Positions 274 to 12,739 of a DNA stretch of 64,000 nt are shown here, in pieces. Source of the stretch: a virus; the IMG/VR virus record IMGVR_UViG_3300034031_000013, positions 1 to 64,000 of that record; one strand, written 5' to 3'. Each line of letters begins with the position of its first letter. Within the stretch, counting starts at the first letter, position 1. Position numbers and translations under genes: made by a program. The notes beneath the pieces were generated by a model, which had not been told where the DNA came from, did no database searches, and saw nothing but the letters and a program-made list of their open reading frames with translations.

Positions 274-449
274 AAGACACGAACGGGGTAATACTTGGGG
301 TTATGTGTTTAGGAATGAGTATTTACTTATTCTATCCGCGGGCGAAAAAAGCAAACAGTAAACTCGAAGTGTACTTCCGTGTCAAAGCGGTTATAGGTGG
401 CATAATATCACTAACCGTTGGAATTTACTTACTGGTAAACAATCTCTGA
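270..449 (+). CDS. Small two-TM membrane protein (59 aa)
   Basis: GTG start overlaps the previous stop (GTGA); two hydrophobic segments. Confidence 0.45.
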   Translation: MKDTNGVILGVMCLGMSIYLFYPRAKKANSKLEVYFRVKAVIGGIISLTVGIYLLVNNL

Positions 450-2973: not shown

Positions 2974-3333
2974 TTAATCTCTTTTGTTTGTAAGTAAATT
3001 AAATAGCTTCTCTTTATCTGCTTTGAGTTCTTCTATTAATTGATTCTTACTATCTATCAATTGATCTTTAGTATTTAATATTTCCTGAACAGCCGGTGTA
3101 AACCCCATTTCAACTGGCGCAGGTTCAATAAGGAGCGCAAGATCAATGTTTAACTTTGTCTTTACATTCTCTATCATATCCAAGCTAAGTTTATCTCTAC
3201 CACACCAAGCAGTAAGCGTTTGGCGGCTTATTCCTAAACTCTTTGCGGCATCTTCCATTCTTAACCCATTGTTTTGCAAAGCTTGTTTTAAAATAATTCC
3301 CTTGATTTTCAGCATGTTATGTATTTGTGACAA
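2974..3333 (-). CDS. XRE-family HTH repressor (CI-like) with C-terminal coiled coil
   Basis: HTH pattern LRMEDAAKSLGISRQTLTAW; heptad repeats KDQLIDSKNQLIEELK; divergent from the early operon. True start may be 3315. Confidence 0.8.
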   Translation of the reverse strand: MSQIHNMLKIKGIILKQALQNNGLRMEDAAKSLGISRQTLTAWCGRDKLSLDMIENVKTKLNIDLALLIEPAPVEMGFTPAVQEILNTKDQLIDSKNQLIEELKADKEKLFNLLTNKRD

Positions 3334-3350
3334 AAATAACTATTTATTTA

Positions 3351-3382
3351 CTTGACAGATGTAAACATTTACTTTACATTTG
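3351..3382 (+). promoter_or_regulatory. Early rightward promoter (Bacteroidota sigma-A type) with an operator-like palindrome
   Basis: TTG at ~3352 and TACATTTG (TAnnTTTG) at 3375-3382; palindrome GTAAACATTTAC at 3361-3372 lies between them. Confidence 0.6.
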
Positions 3383-3605
3383 TTTTGTCATTAGGAATTA
3401 ACGACTTCACAAAAGTACAACTTTTAATCAAATAACCAAACAAGATGAAAACAGTAGCACAGATAGCATTAAATGTACAATCACTACAATATTTAAAACT
3501 ATTTGTAACAATTTGTAAATAACTCTTGTATTAATAAATAATTAGTTACACATTTGCTTTACAATAACCAACAATAACATTACAACATTTAAAAGACTTG
3601 CAAAC

Positions 3606-4214
3606 ATGAAAACAACAATCACTTTAACAGACGAGAAACTTCAAGACATCTACACAGATGAACAATTTAGAAACCAAGTAGCGAACGCACACAGTTGCCT
3701 TGATTCAAATCACAATTTCAAACACAAGCAAACCTGCTCTTATCCTACTACATATATAGTAACAGAGGAACAAATTGAATTAGCCAAAGTAGAGAAATTA
3801 AGAGCCAAAGAGCAATTCATTAAAGACCACGAAAACGCTTTAATCTTTATCGGCATGGGCATGACTTATGAGCCGACGGAGGGCAATGATGTAGGAAACT
3901 ACAGAGTAAGAACACAATTCACTAACCCAAATGGCAGAACCTTCTTTATAGAGGTTTGCGGAGGCAGCAACGATTACAAATCTCATGTAACATACTCGAT
4001 TGATGTTGATTTACAAAAGAGAAGAGAAAGCGAAAAACCATATATACAAGACTACTACAACTATAACGGCTTAGAAAGAAACGCTAACCCGATATATACA
4101 AAAGAAAGCTTATTAAGCCTTGTAAATCGTCAATTCGACTGCAATTTCTCTGAAATTATAATAGATAACTACAATCTATCGCCGGACGATATCACCTGCA
4201 AAAGCCCTAATTAA
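3606..4214 (+). CDS. Early hypothetical protein
   Basis: 202 aa ORF preceded by AAAAGACTTGCA (3591-3602). Confidence 0.75.
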   Translation: MKTTITLTDEKLQDIYTDEQFRNQVANAHSCLDSNHNFKHKQTCSYPTTYIVTEEQIELAKVEKLRAKEQFIKDHENALIFIGMGMTYEPTEGNDVGNYRVRTQFTNPNGRTFFIEVCGGSNDYKSHVTYSIDVDLQKRRESEKPYIQDYYNYNGLERNANPIYTKESLLSLVNRQFDCNFSEIIIDNYNLSPDDITCKSPN

Positions 4215-4247
4215 TCAAATATTAGCCACTACTAAAAGACTTGCACC

Positions 4248-4490
4248 ATGAACTGGAATAACATTGACTTAAAATCTAATTACGAGGCTTCACAAAACAT
4301 ACTAGAGCCTTTAAGCTTCGACATTCTCTTACTAGAAATACACTGCAATGCAAGAGAGATAAACGAGGCAACAGTTACCGCACAATTCGAAGAAGATTTA
4401 AGAAGCAAGATAGCGTCAGCGCGGGAAATATTCAAAGCCAACCTTGTAAATATTGTAAACCACGCTAAGGAAGAAAGGGCAAAACCATGA
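4248..4490 (+). CDS. Early hypothetical protein
   Basis: 80 aa ORF preceded by AAAAGACTTGCA (4234-4245). Confidence 0.7.
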   Translation: MNWNNIDLKSNYEASQNILEPLSFDILLLEIHCNAREINEATVTAQFEEDLRSKIASAREIFKANLVNIVNHAKEERAKP

Positions 4491-4577
4491 AAATCATAAA
4501 AGCCCTTGCATGGATATGCGCAGTATTCCTGCTTATCCGACAGCTAATGAGTAAAGAATAAACAAATGGTTAGTTGA

Positions 4578-4632
4578 TGCCTGATTGACGACAGGACTTG
4601 AGAAAGTCAGAGGCTCGTAACCTCGTCAGGCA
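4578..4632 (+). ncRNA. Minimal tRNA-like RNA (acceptor stem, hairpin and T-like arm; no D arm)
   Basis: TGCCTGA/TCAGGCA 7-bp stem, GACTT-GAGA-AAGTC hairpin, GAGG-CTCGTAA-CCTC arm with a 7-nt loop. Confidence 0.45.
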
Positions 4633-4874
4633 CTAAGTGAAACAGCAAAGAGAGGGAATAAGCCGTTTGCCTCTGAAAATAAAGCTAAAGTAAAAGACCA
4701 ATCGAAAGTGATTGTAGGGTATATGCTTTAACACCCGAAACAAAGGTTAAGCCGTCCAGCAGACTGAAAGAGTTCAGGAATTTAAAAGAGCCTGATTTAA
4801 TTACTGCATCATAATCGGAACGAAACAACCCCTCAAGCTTGAAATAGTGCTACGGGCATAAGTTAAAAGACTAT

Positions 4875-4928
4875 ACGTCTATAGCTCAATGCTATACTGA
4901 TGAGGCCAAAGGGAAGAGGCCGAAACGT
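4875..4928 (+). ncRNA. Type III hammerhead ribozyme, predicted cleavage after C4879 (GUC)
   Basis: ACG-UC / stem I UAUAGC-UCAAU-GCUAUA / CUGAUGA core (4897-4903) / stem II GGCC-loop-GGCC / GAAA (4922-4925) / CGU; all core nucleotides present. Confidence 0.92.
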
Positions 4929-4954
4929 TTAACTAATTAAAAGACTTGCAAATT

Positions 4955-5320
4955 ATGGGGACTTTAAAAACATTGGACTTACCTAACCACATTCAAGAAC
5001 TTACCCTTTGCGATAAGGATAATTTAAGTTTCGATTATCAAAACAATAGTCACTATTGGATGACAGAAACAGAGGAAGAGTATAAAAAGGTACTGTCTAA
5101 AATAGACAAGTTGAAGATGGAAAATAAAACATACCTAATATATGCATGGTATGATATTTCCTCATTCGATTATTGGAAACGAGAAAGAGATACCAATTAC
5201 ATCCAATTAACGGTAGTTATTAAAAAACCAATTCTCACCAACAAACAGATATACAGATTAGAAAACGACCTAAATAAATTAGACACAAAAGCGTGTATAA
5301 TCCTTTCGGACATAAACTAG
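4955..5320 (+). CDS. Early hypothetical protein
   Basis: ATG 4955 preferred over track TTG 4946 because it follows the AAAAGACTTGCA motif (4939-4950). Confidence 0.7.
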   Translation: MGTLKTLDLPNHIQELTLCDKDNLSFDYQNNSHYWMTETEEEYKKVLSKIDKLKMENKTYLIYAWYDISSFDYWKRERDTNYIQLTVVIKKPILTNKQIYRLENDLNKLDTKACIILSDIN

Positions 5321-5371
5321 AATTAACCCCTATGAATATTAACACGCCTTAAACCACTAAAAAAGACTTGC

Positions 5372-5626
5372 ATGAAAAAGATCATCATCACATTATCAAT
5401 TGTATTTAGTGCCTTTCTAGTACAGGCACAGACAGCAAAGAAAGACCCTACAGGTAATTACATAGAGGTAACCAAAGAAAGCACCGCAAAATTAACGGAT
5501 AAAACCTTTACCACCTTAAAAGGCGAAGTTTTTAAGGTCTACGAAACGGACAAAGGGAGGCTATTTGTAAAGCGCAAGAGTGCCAAGACTGGCAAATCTT
5601 ACAATCAATATCTAAAAGTTAATTAG
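5372..5626 (+). CDS. Small secreted protein
   Basis: Signal peptide MKKIIITLSIVFSAFLVQA; motif at 5361-5372 abuts the ATG. Confidence 0.7.
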   Translation: MKKIIITLSIVFSAFLVQAQTAKKDPTGNYIEVTKESTAKLTDKTFTTLKGEVFKVYETDKGRLFVKRKSAKTGKSYNQYLKVN

Positions 5627-5637
5627 GAGGCTGAAAG

Positions 5638-7294
5638 ATGGAAAATAAGCCACTTACAAAAAGCCAAGCCATTCAAGCCTGTAAAAAGGAGCTAAGAGAG
5701 TGGATAATGGTTAAACGCCTATATCATTTAAGGATAGACGAAATTAACGCCTGTACGGTACGAGTAAGCGCAGTACATGACGGAGTTTATTACAGTAGAC
5801 AAGCAAAGTTTAACACCAATGAGCCATTTTAAAATATGCTTTCTAATTGGTCACAATTGGAAAGGCTTGCCAGGGTATTTAGATATATCAAATTTAGTTT
5901 ATAAAAAGAAATTTTGCAAACGATGTTTAGCAACCAAATGAAACTCTTTCTCCCCCTCCTATTAGCCTTTTTAATAGGCGTTACACTAGGCTTGATACTA
6001 GGAACAAGGAAACCAAAGCTAAACTACTTACAGCCTCAAAACTGCATCGCTCACCCTCCTATATTCAGGGCATGAAAGAGTATCAAAGACAGCTAAGAGA
6101 GGGAGGGGTTAAAGCATTGCTAATCAAGTTAGACGTTAAAGAAAAGCAGGAACGCTACGAGGAATGTGAGGAAATAGTTCAGGCTATCAGAGAGTTTAAC
6201 CAAGCGAATGAAAAGAACTATCCTACCCGATTAACAACGGATTTAAAAAAGCAATTACAATTAACATGAATAAAGAAACAAACTTCATAGGCTATTCCAA
6301 TGGAGTACCCTATGATATACTTGATATAAGGCACGATAAGGAGAATATCGGGTTAATACGTGTATTTGGATTTGATGCGCCTGTATGGTGCTTATTTGAT
6401 CGGATAACGCAAAGGAGTTCAATTAATGGAAAGTAAGATATGTATTCGCTTTTAACAATCATAGATGCGCGTATTCAAGCGTACGACATAAACCTTACCC
6501 AATGCGAAAATAACCTTGAAGCTGAATATTGGAGAGGCAGGTTAGCGGAAGCAATGGAACTATTACAGGAAGTGTTAAACATGGCAGAGGCAGACAGTGA
6601 CGAAAATGATGATTTTGAACCTTATCTCGGTCAGGATTAATGGAAACACGCCAAATAACAACCATCCGCAACGCCCTTAACAGACGCAAGGAGATAAGAC
6701 AAGGGCTAAAGTGTACTAACATAGCCTATGACCTTTGGATAGCTAGTTTAAGCTATGAAACAGGGCTAACAGTAGAATTTATAATTGATAATCTGGAAAT
6801 AATTAAGGAGCTATGAAAGAACTAAAAACCACCATAGAGAATACAGGACTTGTAAACAGGATAGATGACTTAATCAACCAATGGACTTGCCCTGATATAG
6901 ATAAGTATGCAGACGGTTCATACTCCCTTTATCTTTCCTTTACAGAACTATCAGCAAAAGACATCTCTAAAGAGATAGTAGAGTTAATGGTAGAGTTTAT
7001 CATGGCTACAGATTCACGAAACTACAGTAGAAGAGTATACGAAGCCTCTGTAAATCATTTTTTGAAAGAACGATATAAAGAACCCAAGCCATGACCACAA
7101 TCCCAAACCAAATCATTCAATCAGCCTCCCTTATAGCAAGAGAGGTGTACAGCGATTTAAAGAACCTAGGACGAGTTACAGACTACATTCAAGAGAATAG
7201 TCACACAGCAGATTTTGAACTGTCTGACGGCTTCCGAATGAGGGCTATCGAGAAGAAGAACGAGTTCTACTATAATATTTTCAGAGCAAGTTAA
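5638..7294 (+). other. Run of small early hypothetical ORFs (5638-5832, 6072-6269, 6440-6640, 6813-7094, 7091-7294 and shorter ones)
   Basis: Tightly packed co-oriented ORFs with overlapping start/stop codons. Confidence 0.6.
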
Positions 7295-7299
7295 AATAT

Positions 7300-7463
7300 T
7301 AAATACTTCCTGCTTGAAGTAAGATCGGTGATACTAATATATCCGATGAAAGACGCAGAATAAAACTGATGGAGGCTGCGATTCAGAGTATCATATTCCA
7401 AACGCTTTTACAGAGAGAGACACGGCTACTGACCCGAACATTCCTAGTGACAGGAAGTATTTA
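7300..7463 (+). ncRNA. Candidate structured ncRNA (~164 nt) with predicted pseudoknot
   Basis: 13-bp terminal inverted repeat TAAATACTTCCTG/CAGGAAGTATTTA; internal hairpins; loop TGATACT complementary to AGTATCA; strand assumed from operon. Confidence 0.5.
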
Positions 7464-7469
7464 TCATAT

Positions 7470-7539
7470 CTGCCTTTAGTTTAAGCAAAACAACCCTTGC
7501 AAGTGGGGAGATGGAGGTTCGAATCCTTAAGGCAGACCA
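7470..7539 (+). tRNA. Degenerate tRNA-like gene (TGC/GCA in loop, anticodon stem broken, encoded CCA)
   Basis: CTGCCTT/AAGGCAG acceptor, TA, GTTT/AAAC D stem, GGTTCGAATCC T arm, ACCA end. Confidence 0.6.
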
Positions 7540-7647
7540 ATGTGCGCACAATCGTTCTTTTTAACCATCCCAATTTAATCAACTGTTAATTTTTTAAACA
7601 CTTCTTAAATTGTATCTACAAATCTAATGTTCCTGACGAAAGAACAC

Positions 7648-7676
7648 GCCCGTATCTGCACTGTACGGGCTTTTTT
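7648..7676 (+). terminator. Intrinsic terminator
   Basis: GCCCGTA...TACGGGC followed by TTTTTT. Confidence 0.7.
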
Positions 7677-7816
7677 ATTAACCAAGATGCTAATTAAGCT
7701 AGTTTAACATGAACAGCCACAGCCTGCGCGCTGACCTTAGTAGTGCCTATCTAACAGACTGCAATAATTCTGGGGCGTGAAGAGTAAGAGGTGAGATGCC
7801 TCATTAGAATAGTTGA

Positions 7817-7849
7817 GGGAAAGGCTTGAAATATAGTCTTTCCTTTTTT
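7817..7849 (+). terminator. Intrinsic terminator
   Basis: GGAAAGGC...GTCTTTCC followed by a T-run. Confidence 0.6.
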
Positions 7850-8125
7850 ATCACCCCTAACCTAACCAATTATGGAACCCTACAAATTAGCTATAGTACT
7901 ATTTGCCTTGATAGATGCAATAATAATTGTATACAGCTTATCAAGCGCAATGGAGGATAATACAGAGGAATTTTGATATGAGAGAAAGAACATCGGTAAG
8001 AGGCTTTGATGAATTAGAGACATTGCCAAGAGCAGAACCAATATCAGGCATCCCTTTACACCTTACAAGAGAAGAGATAAGGAAGTTCTACGAGAAGAAG
8101 AAACTACAGAATAATAAATAACCAC

Positions 8126-8953
8126 ATGAAAATATTTGAAACCGTATCATTCCATATTGTGAAGCCTTGCAACATGAAATGTAAATTCTGTTATGCCACA
8201 TTCGAAGATATGCACGTAGGCGCACAGATGTCACTTGAACACGCCTGTACTGTAATAACCAAGTTGTATTTATCGGGAGTTCAGAAGATAACATTTGCAG
8301 GTGGTGAGCCATTGCTGTACAAGCACATAGACGACTGTATAAGCTTCTCGAAAGGGCTAGGCATGACAACTAGCATAATAACAAATGGTAGCTTAATAAC
8401 CCACCAATGGCTTGTCAAAATGCAAGGAAAACTTGATTGGATAGGTATATCGGTTGATAGTTTAGACCCGCGCACCAATGATTTGATTGGTAGGCGAACT
8501 AAAATGAAAATAGACTACCACGCCCTAGTTAATAATATAAACTTCTACGGATTTAAGCTTAAAATAAATACAGTTGTCAATTCCTTTAACAAGGACGAGG
8601 AAATGAACGAGTTCTTGAATATCGCCAATCCTAGTAGGTGGAAAGTATTTCAAGCACTAAGAGTTGAAGGGCAAAATGATTCTCAATTCGACGAAGTGAA
8701 AGTATCAGATGATGAGTTTGAAGCATTCTTAGAACGACATTCAAGCCAAGTATCATTAGTCCCAGAGAGCAACGAATCAATGACCGCTAGTTACCTTTTA
8801 ATTGACCCATTAGGCAGGTTATTTGAAAATAGCTTAGGCTCTCATACTTATTCAGATTCATTAATTAACAATAATATAGAACACTGCTTATCGCAAATAA
8901 GCCTTGACAGGGATATGTTTCTCAAAAGAGGCGGAGTTTACGAATGGGCTTAA
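8126..8953 (+). CDS. Prokaryotic viperin (pVip, RSAD2-like radical SAM ddhNTP synthase)
   Basis: FHIVKPCNMKCKFC (CxxxCxxC), FAGGEP, SIITNGS, WIGISVDS, KINTVV, RWKVFQ, ESNESMTASYLLIDPLGR and C-terminal FLKRGGVYEW, all viperin-family motifs. Confidence 0.92.
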   Translation: MKIFETVSFHIVKPCNMKCKFCYATFEDMHVGAQMSLEHACTVITKLYLSGVQKITFAGGEPLLYKHIDDCISFSKGLGMTTSIITNGSLITHQWLVKMQGKLDWIGISVDSLDPRTNDLIGRRTKMKIDYHALVNNINFYGFKLKINTVVNSFNKDEEMNEFLNIANPSRWKVFQALRVEGQNDSQFDEVKVSDDEFEAFLERHSSQVSLVPESNESMTASYLLIDPLGRLFENSLGSHTYSDSLINNNIEHCLSQISLDRDMFLKRGGVYEWA

Positions 8954-8965
8954 AATAACCACGAT

Positions 8966-10217
8966 ATGAAATCACTATTTGAAACCCTAGCAACACCATT
9001 AAGAAACCACGCTGATCTAGTAATAGCAGGAATAGATTCTGAAACAGCATCAAGAATTGTCTTTGACCCGCTAAAACAAGTACAGGACGAGGTAGATGAC
9101 GAACGCTTAAATGAAGCCTTTAGACGTGCTTTTATATGGGGGCAGATGCAACAGTTGAAGTTAGATAACGGACGCGCCACACAGTCTGATTTCGAGGCTA
9201 TGGAGGCGTGTATAGAGGATGTTAGAAAGATTCTATGATCCCCGACATTCAAACCCTTCTCATTCACTACCCACACTTAACCGTTGGGGAGTATTGCAAA
9301 CAGTTTCTAGGTATTGATATGGTAAAGGAGACTGAACCGATCAAGCCTGAATATGAAACCGTTCGCCTGATCTCTAAGATTAACGAATCTATTGCTATAG
9401 AACAGGCTAGAGCAAATGGGTATGAGAAAAGACCGAGAATCAGAAACAATAACATCAGAAGCACACCCGAATACGGGATAGACAAAAAGCAATTCATTTA
9501 TCAAAAGAGATACGGAGACTATTAATATGAAAAGGATAACCAAATCAGAGAGCTTCTTAACGGGAGCTTTTTTTATGTTCTGCCACTACTTCTTTGAGGC
9601 TTATAATAAGATGATATGAAAGATACAACTAAAGAATTTCAGTTACCGAGGGAGTTCGGTGAGAAATGGATAAAGGCTTTAAGAAGCGGTGAGTATAAGC
9701 AAAACACCGATGCTCAATTACTTGTGCCGGAAACAGGCTGTTATTGCGCTTTAGGTGTCTTTGCCGTTGCAAATGGCATGGAGTTGAGTGATGACGGCAT
9801 GGATGTATTAATCGACGGGAAATTAGCAGACTACAAGCCATTTAAAGACCTTATGACAAAAGAGGGAATGGTTAAAATCTATAGACTAAACGACAGTAAA
9901 GATGCAACCTTCCCCGAACTGGCAGATTGGATAGAACGAAATGTAGAGTTCGTATGAAACAGCCTATCGTAGTCAGTAATTTCAGTCAGCTATCCTACGC
10001 TTTAAAAGCAGGACACCCGCCTGTAGAGGTTAAGGAGAAGCCGAAGCAAGCGCATTCAGGTTCTTGGTCGGTTTATTATGGGAAGTTGCTTGTAGAGGCT
10101 AATATCAAGTACTACGGCCAATGTGTGAATAAAGTAAATGAGTGTAAACTAAACGGGAGAGATTACCCTAAACCGGAATTATTGAAAATCAAACCTTACG
10201 AAAATGGAAACAAATAA
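8966..10217 (+). other. Four small hypothetical phage ORFs (8966-9238, 9235-9525, 9616-9957, ~9954-10217)
   Basis: Co-oriented; 9616-9957 has the recurrent phage pattern WIKALRSGEYKQ...CYCALGV...LND...F.ELADWIE. Confidence 0.65.
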
Positions 10218-10941
10218 AGAATATCTATCAAGGCTATTGCCTTTATTAAAGAAGCCGATACCTCACCAATGGAGAGTACAAAGCTATTCAAAGAACAAGC
10301 CAGTAGCAACAGTTATGGCTTACGTGGACGCTAGGGACGTACAGGACGTATTAGATACCTACTGCGAGTACGGATGGCAGAGAAAGCACCAAATGCTTAA
10401 TGACAGGCTATATTGCTCTTTAGGAATACAGATGCCTGACGGGACTATTCAATGGAAAGAGGATTGCGGTACAGAAAGCAATCAAGATGCTGAAAAAGGA
10501 CAAGCCTCGGACGCATTTAAGAGAGCAGGAGTTAATTGGGGGATTGGCAGGTTCTTGTACGATATGAAAATTCAGTACGTAGACACCAATGTAAAGAAAG
10601 AAGGCAACAATCATCCTAACTGTGTGGATAAGCAAGGTAAACAGATTTACGATTTAACAACGTATATCAACAACCTTAACCCTAACGCACCGCAAGCCCC
10701 AAAAGCTTCTGTTATTGTGCCTGAACTTTCCACAGACGATAAAGTAAGGAACATGACAGGTAGAAGCAATCCTGAATTAGCTCAGTCCGTTGCAGATGCT
10801 GTATTAGCCTGCAAGAGCAGACAGGATATAATAGACCTTGTTGCCCATCCCGACTATAAGCAATACGAATCTAATGAGAAGTTTCAGAAGCTAGTAAAAT
10901 CAGAAATAGCAAAATATCCTAAACCTCAAAAATCAGCATAG
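10204..10941 (+). CDS. sak: Sak / Rad52-like single-strand annealing protein
   Basis: WRVQ...AYVDARDVQDVLD...EKGQASDAFKRAGVNWGIGRFLY. Confidence 0.9.
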   Translation: METNKEYLSRLLPLLKKPIPHQWRVQSYSKNKPVATVMAYVDARDVQDVLDTYCEYGWQRKHQMLNDRLYCSLGIQMPDGTIQWKEDCGTESNQDAEKGQASDAFKRAGVNWGIGRFLYDMKIQYVDTNVKKEGNNHPNCVDKQGKQIYDLTTYINNLNPNAPQAPKASVIVPELSTDDKVRNMTGRSNPELAQSVADAVLACKSRQDIIDLVAHPDYKQYESNEKFQKLVKSEIAKYPKPQKSA

Positions 10942-10959
10942 AAAGTAAACAATTAAATT

Positions 10960-11304
10960 ATGGAAATACAAGGATTGGTTCACGAAATCGGAGCCACACA
11001 GAACATTAGCGACACTTTTAAAAAGAGAGACTTGATTATTGAGTATGCGGAAAACCCCGAGTATAAAGAGTATCTTAAGTTCGAGGCGGTACAGGACAAA
11101 GTAAACCTATTCGACACAGTAAAAGTTGGCGAAAAAGTTGAAGTGTCGTTTAACTTAAGAGGCAGAGCGCATACTAAAGATGGCAAGACTAGCTATTTCA
11201 ACAGTCTTGTTGCATGGAAGCTAAACAAACTAGGTTCTGCCAGTGAATCTGCTCACGTTCCAGCAGGTGTAGAGTCAGACGAAGACCAAGATTTACCATT
11301 CTAG
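10960..11304 (+). CDS. DUF3127 single-stranded DNA-binding protein
   Basis: MEIQG...FKKRDLIIE...VEVSFNLRGR...YFNSLVAWK; acidic tail ending DLPF. Confidence 0.88.
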   Translation: MEIQGLVHEIGATQNISDTFKKRDLIIEYAENPEYKEYLKFEAVQDKVNLFDTVKVGEKVEVSFNLRGRAHTKDGKTSYFNSLVAWKLNKLGSASESAHVPAGVESDEDQDLPF

Positions 11305-11307
11305 GGC

Positions 11308-12027
11308 ATGGCAGAAGTCAAAGAGCAATTAGTATTCTTTGACCCAATAGAACACAAGTACACAGATAGAGAGGGCAATAGGCTAATTTCGGTTAGTCAG
11401 TTGCTTTCTTTGTTTAAACCCAAATTTGACCCGACAGGCGAGATAACAGCGAAGTATGCCAAGAAGCATGGAATGACTGTTGCCGAGGTGCTGGACAAGT
11501 GGAAGCAAATTAACACACAGTCCTGCACTTACGGAACATCGGTACATGAAGAAATTGAACATTACATCAATACCAAAGAGATAAGATCATCCGATCATAT
11601 CCATTACGTCAATCAGTTTGCAGAAATTAAATTTCAGGGAAGGTTATTCTCGGAGCGTATGCTTTACTGCCTTGATAATATGGTAGCTGGAACAGCAGAC
11701 ATCGTTGAACGGATTGGATTTTATATAAATATTTGGGATTTTAAGACGAACAAGGAGCTATCCAAGTTCAACAATTTCGGAGGCAGGATGCTTTACGACC
11801 TTTCCCACTTATCGGACTGCAATTTCAATCACTATCAGCTTCAATTATCGCTATACGGTTACTTGTGTGAACTAAAGGGGTTGAAGGTAAACGATTTAAT
11901 CATTCTTTATATGAATCCCAAGACCTTAAAGATGGAGTTCCATCGGTGCAGGTATATGAGGGATGAAGTAAAGTACATTTTAGAAACAAAAGACACATTA
12001 TGGGACAATCAAAAAATTCTTTCCTAG
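11308..12027 (+). CDS. PD-(D/E)XK exonuclease (Cas4/RecB-like fold)
   Basis: H.Y...ISVSQLL, GTSVH, AGTAD...IWDFKT, HYQLQLSLY. Confidence 0.85.
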   Translation: MAEVKEQLVFFDPIEHKYTDREGNRLISVSQLLSLFKPKFDPTGEITAKYAKKHGMTVAEVLDKWKQINTQSCTYGTSVHEEIEHYINTKEIRSSDHIHYVNQFAEIKFQGRLFSERMLYCLDNMVAGTADIVERIGFYINIWDFKTNKELSKFNNFGGRMLYDLSHLSDCNFNHYQLQLSLYGYLCELKGLKVNDLIILYMNPKTLKMEFHRCRYMRDEVKYILETKDTLWDNQKILS

Positions 12028-12455
12028 AGCTAAGGGCCGAGGATATGGTACTCATGTACGACCATGAGTTCAGTAAGAAAAAAGCAGAAGCTACAGGCGT
12101 AGCACTTGTGCAGGGCGTGTTTGACGATGGGCTTGTAGACCCAATGAAAGTTATGTCTAATATCGTTCGCTTAAAAGCAGTTATTGACAGCGCAGATAAG
12201 GCATTTAGAGAGCGTTTAAGCCTACCTTCTGCCGCTAGTTGGAATGGAGTAACCTTTACCCCTAAGAATGGCTCAGAGAAGCTAGTTTACGAAGAAGATG
12301 CGGTTTGTAAAGACTTGTCGGAGAAGCTAAAGGCAAGACAGGAACTTGTTAAACTTGCTACTAAGTCAAAGGATGCTATTTATGACAGCGAAGGATGTGA
12401 GGTAACAAGGGTATCAAGCAAGTTCGACAAGGCTAGTATCACAATTTCATTTTAA
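12000..12455 (+). CDS. Conserved phage protein in the recombination module
   Basis: 151 aa ORF; context. Confidence 0.65.
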   Translation: MGQSKNSFLELRAEDMVLMYDHEFSKKKAEATGVALVQGVFDDGLVDPMKVMSNIVRLKAVIDSADKAFRERLSLPSAASWNGVTFTPKNGSEKLVYEEDAVCKDLSEKLKARQELVKLATKSKDAIYDSEGCEVTRVSSKFDKASITISF

Positions 12456-12493: not shown

Positions 12494-12564
12494 TGGGGGA
12501 TAGTTTAATTAATAGAACGTTGGCTTCATGCCATCAGATGCAGGTTTGAATCCTGCTCCCTCAA
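12494..12564 (+). tRNA. Degenerate tRNA-like gene (CAT or TCA in loop, ambiguous anticodon arm)
   Basis: TGGGGGA/TCCCTCA acceptor, TA-GTTT...GAAC D arm, GCAGG-TTTGAAT-CCTGC T arm. Confidence 0.6.
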
Positions 12565-12739
12565 CTAACCAAATCAAGCACCATGAATCAGCTAAAGAAC
12601 TATCTAACGGGGGTTAAAGCCGTAGCCCGTACTGCAAGTCCTAACGGAAGGGATTACAAGCACAACGGAAACTTCACCCCTCTAACAGCATGGAATGGCG
12701 AACAGTTTAACTATAGCCCTATCCTTAATCAAAAAGAAC

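Follow-up and report, generated by a model that had tools for sequence, protein, structure and literature searches.

A type III hammerhead motif among the early genes of a temperate Bacteroidota-type soil phage and its likely part in splitting the early transcript

The genome considered here, 75,857 bp long and bounded by direct terminal repeats, is an IMG/VR virus record of which the first 64 kb (hereafter, the window) were analyzed. Its products include an integrase, a large terminase, a portal and tail proteins, and the phage is a temperate one, of Bacteroidota type, from soil. All credible open reading frames (ORFs) from 3606 to 12455 lie on the plus strand, and a complete hammerhead motif lies among them on that same strand, in the order 202-aa gene, 80-aa gene, 24-aa hydrophobic ORF, 310-nt spacer, hammerhead, and 121-aa gene. 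The hydrophobic ORF (24 codons, 4487-4561) overlaps the stop codon of the 80-aa gene (ATGA) and is the last coding segment before the spacer. The features of the region are the following.

2974-3333, minus strand: HTH regulator gene, matching regulator PHROGs
3352-3382, plus strand: candidate early promoter of Bacteroidota type (TACATTTG with a cTTG 20 nt upstream of it), a consensus match only
3606-4214, plus strand: 202-aa early gene, upstream of the hammerhead
4562-4871, plus strand: gene-free spacer of 310 nt, with no credible ORF
4863-4872, plus strand: left copy of the 10-nt direct repeat TTAAAAGACT, an exact match to the right copy
4872-4931, plus strand: complete type III hammerhead (RF00008 match), all 54 model positions matched
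4872-4879, plus strand: 5' strand of stem III, UAUACGU, followed by C17, from the sequence and the Rfam alignment
4880-4896, plus strand: stem-loop I, UAUAGC / UCAAU / GCUAUA, 6 bp with a 5-nt loop
4897-4903, plus strand: catalytic core C3-U4-G5-A6-U7-G8-A9, CUGAUGA
4904-4921, plus strand: stem-loop II, GGCC / AAAGGGAAGA / GGCC, with the basal pair G10.1-C11.1
4922-4931, plus strand: G12-A13-A14-A15.1 (GAAA, 4922-4925) and the 3' strand of stem III (A4925-A4931)
4937-4950, plus strand: right copy of the direct repeat (4937-4946), merged with the leader 12-mer AAAAGACTTGCA (4939-4950)
4955-5320, plus strand: 121-aa gene (ORF), starting 24 nt past the hammerhead; first cistron of the predicted 3' cleavage product
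7648-7670, plus strand: intrinsic-terminator-like hairpin with 8 pairs and a run of six T, a pattern match only
12494-12565: tRNA-like gene that ARAGORN calls tRNA-SeC; its anticodon is UCA (opal-reading)

A preliminary description of this DNA, made from its letters, had claimed a hammerhead with every conserved core base and three paired stems, and each of these can be read directly from the sequence, in type III order and with a GUC triplet. The core is composed of CUGAUGA (4897-4903) and GAA (4922-4924), with no deviating position, and G4899 is G5, as had been assigned. Stem I pairs 4880-4885 (UAUAGC) with 4891-4896 (GCUAUA), and stem II pairs 4904-4907 with 4918-4921, its basal pair being G4904-C4921. 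In stem III, U4872-A4873-(U4874)-A4875-C4876-G4877-U4878 is paired with A4925-C4926-G4927-U4928-(U4929)-U4930-A4931, that is, four contiguous pairs including A15.1-U16.1, plus two past one U.U mismatch; the limits of 4875-4928 originally given for the motif are the exact bounds of the contiguous 4-bp helix. Helices of 6, 4 and 4 (+2) bp surround the core, loops cap stems I and II, and both ends exit via stem III. Within the GUC triplet (G4877-U4878-C4879), U4878 (U16.1) faces A4925, and C4879 occupies H17, which is C and not G, so that the predicted scissile bond falls between C4879 and U4880. The cut is thus where it had been placed, after C4879 and 75 nt before the ATG at 4955 (4955-4880 = 75).

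The preliminary description had named an Infernal scan with the Rfam hammerhead models as a check. RF00008 is the best match within its clan (CL00010) and aligns at full length, with 42.9 bits and E-values of 3.2e-8 (400 nt searched) and 1.5e-9 (whole 75,857-bp genome), though under the curated gathering cut-off of 48.5 bits; RF00163 and RF02276 did not match the hammerhead. Rfam at gathering thresholds accordingly lists two tRNA-like genes only for the whole window, and not the hammerhead. The cut-off is an operational criterion rather than a biochemical one, and we scored for comparison nine other full-consensus type III hammerheads, comprising eight phage motifs found by a core-plus-stem-II pattern and the metagenome locus L132 (38.1 bits). 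They range from 31.7 to 43.5 bits and none of the nine reaches 48.5; the cut-off therefore fails to separate real phage members, and the sub-threshold score of the window hammerhead, which is near the top of the eight scored phage motifs, reflects the RF00008 model and not the window sequence. Sub-cut-off type III hammerheads were observed at loci L032, L043, L063, L079, L087, L092 and L132.

An independent descriptor, composed of the core, U16.1, H17 and three stems, found 4872-4931 as its sole match in the window. In a loose form it gave 4 matches in 300 dinucleotide shuffles, and when made as strict as the observed stems, 2 matches in 2000 shuffles, or about 0.001 per shuffled window. Among 32 further type III motifs of phages (31 places), stems of 6/4/4 bp in 54 nt are the modal architecture. 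The hammerhead at 4872-4931 is, with high confidence, a real motif, and it is probably active in self-cleavage.

Folding of a 68-nt context gives pair probabilities of 0.73-1.0 for stem-loop I (-5.1 kcal/mol as an isolated hairpin) and above 0.99 for stem-loop II. Stem III, with its four contiguous pairs, is short and absent from the nearest-neighbor folding prediction, and the full hammerhead fold lies 2.1 kcal/mol above the minimum free energy, a difference that excludes tertiary energy. A competing hairpin that would hide the cut site, CUAUA-CGUC-UAUAG (4871-4884), was rejected, at -0.4 kcal/mol versus -5.1 for stem I. To cleave fast at physiological Mg2+, a hammerhead needs its stems I and II to make a tertiary contact through their loops or bulges. 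Here, loop 1 (UCAAU) and loop 2 (AAAGGGAAGA) can form at most two contiguous Watson-Crick or GU pairs, non-canonical contacts being beyond what sequence can judge. Loop-loop pairing of at least 3 bp is available in about half of the phage type III set, including L087 and L043, where loop 1 CCU or CCUU can pair with loop 2 AGG or AAGG (3 bp each by script count). Given a potential of at most two pairs, compared with 3 bp in the closest look-alikes, rapid self-cleavage at low Mg2+ cannot be taken for granted. According to PMC3088659, loop contacts matter for cleavage speed at 0.5 mM Mg2+, and a pseudoknot is used by about 40% of hammerheads.

The hammerhead had been placed inside an early transcript. 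The early genes around it form a rightward block, all read in one direction, and the motif is on their coding strand, an arrangement from which its transcription may be expected. A gap of about 270 nt separates the HTH regulator gene from the 202-aa gene at 3606, and the TAnnTTTG box of the candidate promoter (TACATTTG, 3375-3382) faces away from the leftward HTH gene. Between 3383 and 16342, spacer included, the plus strand contains no TAnnTTTG, so that no other plus-strand box lies closer upstream of the ribozyme than the one at 3375-3382. The region 2974-3605 is likely a divergent lysis-lysogeny switch, whose early promoter would be of Bacteroidota type. At the other end, 7648-7670 is the first strong terminator-like hairpin past the hammerhead (a weaker 5-pair match lies at 6377-6391) and likely the point at which transcription of the ribozyme-containing unit ends. 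The 121-aa gene that follows the hammerhead belongs to no Pfam or PHROG family, and its protein is an orphan, with only itself recovered among 5.8 billion proteins. We also observed that TAnnTTTG boxes are opposed in 2974-3605, with two on the minus strand (3331 and 3410) and one on the plus strand (3375).

Searches for relatives of the locus were largely negative. The phage collection contained no DNA relatives of the phage, near or distant; exact and degenerate ribozyme patterns had no match in viral contigs, nor in metagenomes with loop 2 fixed; and single-protein queries with the 121-aa and 202-aa gene products found no relatives in viral contigs. Neither DNA nor flanking proteins led to an orthologous hammerhead locus in the collections, and the sole close portal relative (70% identity) is a 20-kb fragment without a hammerhead and without the early region.

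The most similar hammerhead is that of L087, from a 56.8-kb IMG/VR record (G002) whose portal is 24% identical to that of the window phage. It likewise belongs to type III and has 6/4/4-bp stems (GGCC in stem II was forced by the search pattern); its loop 2 begins with AAAGG and its stem I with UA, its upstream flank is similar (ATAAGTNAAAAG), and it too is located in a non-coding leader, about 215 nt downstream of a promoter-like TTTG...TAAATTTG, with a small first gene starting 29 nt further on. In contrast, three of the six stem I pairs are changed on both sides, H17 is A instead of C, and loop 1, UAAACCU, can pair with AGG of loop 2. Homology between the upstream blocks of the two phages is not significant, and because stem II was fixed by the pattern and the upstream leaders are unrelated, we do not claim homology for L087. 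A second metagenome scan yielded two hammerheads sharing the stem I of the window hammerhead, L131 and the type III L132. In L087 and L132 the stems are kept with different sequences, and homology of either to the window hammerhead is unproven. L131 (about 290-350, minus strand), read by eye, is of type II, GGUC-GAAA-CCGGG GAAA CCCGG-UC / stem-loop I / CUGAUGA-GACC, and its 17-nt stem-loop I is identical to that of the window, loop UCAAU included; Rfam does not report it at E<=0.01.

The 202-aa protein has about 30 homologues, and a profile search with it gave seven loci, four of them in metagenome-assembled genomes (MAGs), namely three Bacteroidota (Tidjanibacter, Bacteroidaceae, Flavobacterium) and one Bdellovibrio. 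The 202-aa gene is the only gene that the window shares with these loci. A hammerhead is found at none of the seven. At two, L126 and L127, a pistol ribozyme lies directly before the 202-aa homologue, 17-67 nt from the start codon, and the L126 pistol and both L127 pistols score above the cut-off of the Rfam pistol model (RF02679, 34.5 bits).

L127, 2150-2212: pistol, 56.5 bits; the homologue starts at 2229
L127, 1664-1725: second pistol, one gene upstream, 50.5 bits
L126, 3866-3934: pistol, 42.5 bits

Each L127 pistol is followed by the leader AAAACTTCTCAA[A/G]ATG, which is present in three copies, and the start-codon leader of L126, AAACTTACA, is short and A-rich as well. These pistols resemble the window hammerhead in that a small early gene has a self-cleaving ribozyme directly ahead of its start codon, followed by a short A-rich leader that is repeated at neighboring genes (AAAACTTCTCAA[A/G]ATG in L127, AAAAGACTTGCA here). 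They differ in ribozyme class and in preceding the 202-aa homologue, whereas the window hammerhead is about 660 nt downstream of the 202-aa gene and before an unrelated orphan gene. At another of these loci, L125, we observed a 54-nt cassette, a GGGAGC...GCTCCC hairpin plus leader, at 3954-4007 and 4681-4734 (89% identity), directly 5' of two consecutive early genes, one of which is the 202-aa homologue. As judged by these sequences, the slot before early-gene start codons holds exchangeable RNA modules in this Bacteroidota phage group, which supports a processing role for the hammerhead by analogy, not by homology.

We consider it likely, with good though not overwhelming confidence, that a genuine type III hammerhead splits the rightward early polycistronic transcript and uncouples its two halves. 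Stems I and II would form during transcription, and stem III would close once 4931 emerges; the core would then catalyze an attack by the C4879 2'-OH on the phosphate that follows, splitting the message in two. Hammerhead cleavage gives 2',3'-cyclic phosphate and 5'-OH ends, and the ends that the preliminary description had assigned to the products follow from this established mechanism, provided that cleavage takes place. The upstream mRNA would comprise the 202-aa, 80-aa and 24-aa genes and end in the 2',3'-cyclic phosphate, with the 310-nt spacer (4562-4871) as its 3' untranslated tail. The downstream mRNA would start with a 5'-OH at U4880, retain both ribozyme hairpins and have 75 nt before the 121-aa start codon. 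The likely consequence would be that stability and translation of the operon halves are uncoupled. A built-in processing site, as the hammerhead had been called from the outset, matches what has been proposed for phage hammerheads (PMC6765202, PMC3088659).

Several other readings of the locus have to be weighed. A look-alike without cleavage activity, due to chance or decay, is highly improbable. Such a reading would fit the score under the Rfam gathering cut-off and the lack of an evident loop-loop contact; about 0.001 matches per shuffled 64-kb window is not negligible across some 250,000 windows; and inactive hammerhead-like RNAs exist, though mostly off-consensus in the core, according to PMC3088659. 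The Infernal E-value of 1.5e-9 argues against it, as do the short loops and stem lengths, which match those of real phage hammerheads, the absence of core deviations, and the expected context on the sense strand, between genes of a phage early operon. Another reading concerns the spacer, which the preliminary description had taken for a 300-nt structured non-coding block that self-cleavage releases. The block is non-coding: its 310 nt are gene-free, and no credible ORF appears even when TGA is read through, as the UCA-anticodon tRNA of the phage might permit. It is not structured beyond expectation, since 4562-4879 is no more so than its shuffles (z -0.05). Release would require a second cut, for which no other ribozyme or tRNA-like element was found: type I/II hammerhead and pistol models gave no match at E<=1 in the 75,857-bp genome, Rfam returned nothing credible over 3400-4900 and nothing, tRNA included, at E<=5 over 4562-4900, and ARAGORN under relaxed and mitochondrial settings called no tRNA-like gene in 4540-4900. 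Separate release of a spacer RNA is therefore unsupported. A two-cut system could still be imagined in which the hammerhead is the 3' cutter and tRNA-processing enzymes cut a mini-tRNA-like fold (4578-4632), freeing a 310-nt small RNA. The length of the gene-free spacer and a three-helix fold at 4570-4640 (z -1.9) speak for it; the shuffle comparison of the whole block and these negative searches speak against it, as does the lack of similarity between the spacer and the leader upstream of the L087 hammerhead, and we regard it as very unlikely.

The surroundings of the hammerhead raise the further question of how it came to lie there. A 64-nt insert containing it is bracketed by the exact 10-mer TTAAAAGACT, and a repeat as long as 10 nt arose in 0/300 flank shuffles. 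The leader 12-mer AAAAGACTTGCA, with which the right copy is merged, precedes four early genes, the 121-aa gene and three others, and the 10-nt repeat could be an insertion footprint in a gene leader or a degenerate or truncated fifth leader copy. Cleavage in trans of the four 12-mer leaders was considered and rejected: stem I forms a closed hairpin, and complementarity to AAAAGAC is lacking in CGUUUAA, the arm that follows GAAA. A footprint would suit a passenger, that is, a small hammerhead cassette that recombination or insertion at the leader motif had copied ahead of the 121-aa gene, into its leader, active or not, with no selected role for the phage. That the repeat belongs to a 12-mer marking four gene starts is in keeping with this, as is the singleton nature of the hammerhead, for which an orthologue was not found; the stem-loop I shared with the unrelated type II metagenome hammerhead L131 suggests that modules move between contexts. 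Nevertheless, flank repeats are uncommon, with 1 of the 31 other phage type III hammerheads showing one (8 nt) unmatched by shuffles; the core is intact everywhere, which argues against long neutral decay; and the repeat may be no more than a functional leader motif in a fifth, degenerate copy. On balance, we find a passenger quite unlikely. A broader scenario, which we offer as speculation and think unlikely in full, is that ribozyme classes (hammerhead, pistol) and plain hairpin cassettes (as at L125) are swapped by leader recombination, with the 10-nt duplication as an insertion footprint, and that the role of cleavage would be to set the 5'-OH end of the mRNA a constant distance away from the leader.

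Phage-encoded hammerheads have been on record since 2010-2011. Self-cutting hammerheads are a known habit of phage genomes and not a new kind of element, and one more of them adds little to their known occurrence. The transcript-splitting hammerhead proposed here bears on other matters. The flanking leader repeat and the pistols in the corresponding slot of relatives hint at how ribozyme modules get gained and swapped. Because the RF00008 cut-off misses the window hammerhead and all nine others scored, routine annotation under-counts type III phage hammerheads. The function of phage hammerheads is still termed open, with processing suggested to alter stability or translation, and the effect of a ribozyme cut on phage gene expression is a question that the field calls open (PMC6765202); a temperate phage with an identifiable early switch region is a workable place to test the effect of a single cut on early expression.

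Among known systems, viroid-like circular RNAs and retrozymes carry paired hammerheads that have the catalytic motif of the window copy and, typically, type III topology (PMC13725137). Those RNAs need two cuts per unit and ligation, whereas the 76-kb DNA phage has one ribozyme and no repeat unit. The closer comparison is with the phage and prophage hammerheads described in 2011 (Perreault et al. 2011, PMC3088659; RF00008), for which that paper reports all three topologies, frequently at gene junctions, and cleavage of polycistronic phage RNA by some hammerheads other than this one. Prophage clusters in the same paper have at least two close hammerheads flanking individual genes, while the window phage has a single copy, with one hammerhead of any type in its 75,857 bp; the window copy also differs from the hammerheads described there in having no evident loop-loop pseudoknot and in its 42.9 bits, below 48.5. 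It otherwise resembles the type III members of that set: the 11-nt core, GUC, three helices and an open stem III are the same, stems I and II (6 and 4 bp) show the 2-bp difference noted there, and the position is likewise intergenic, on the sense strand and near a start codon.
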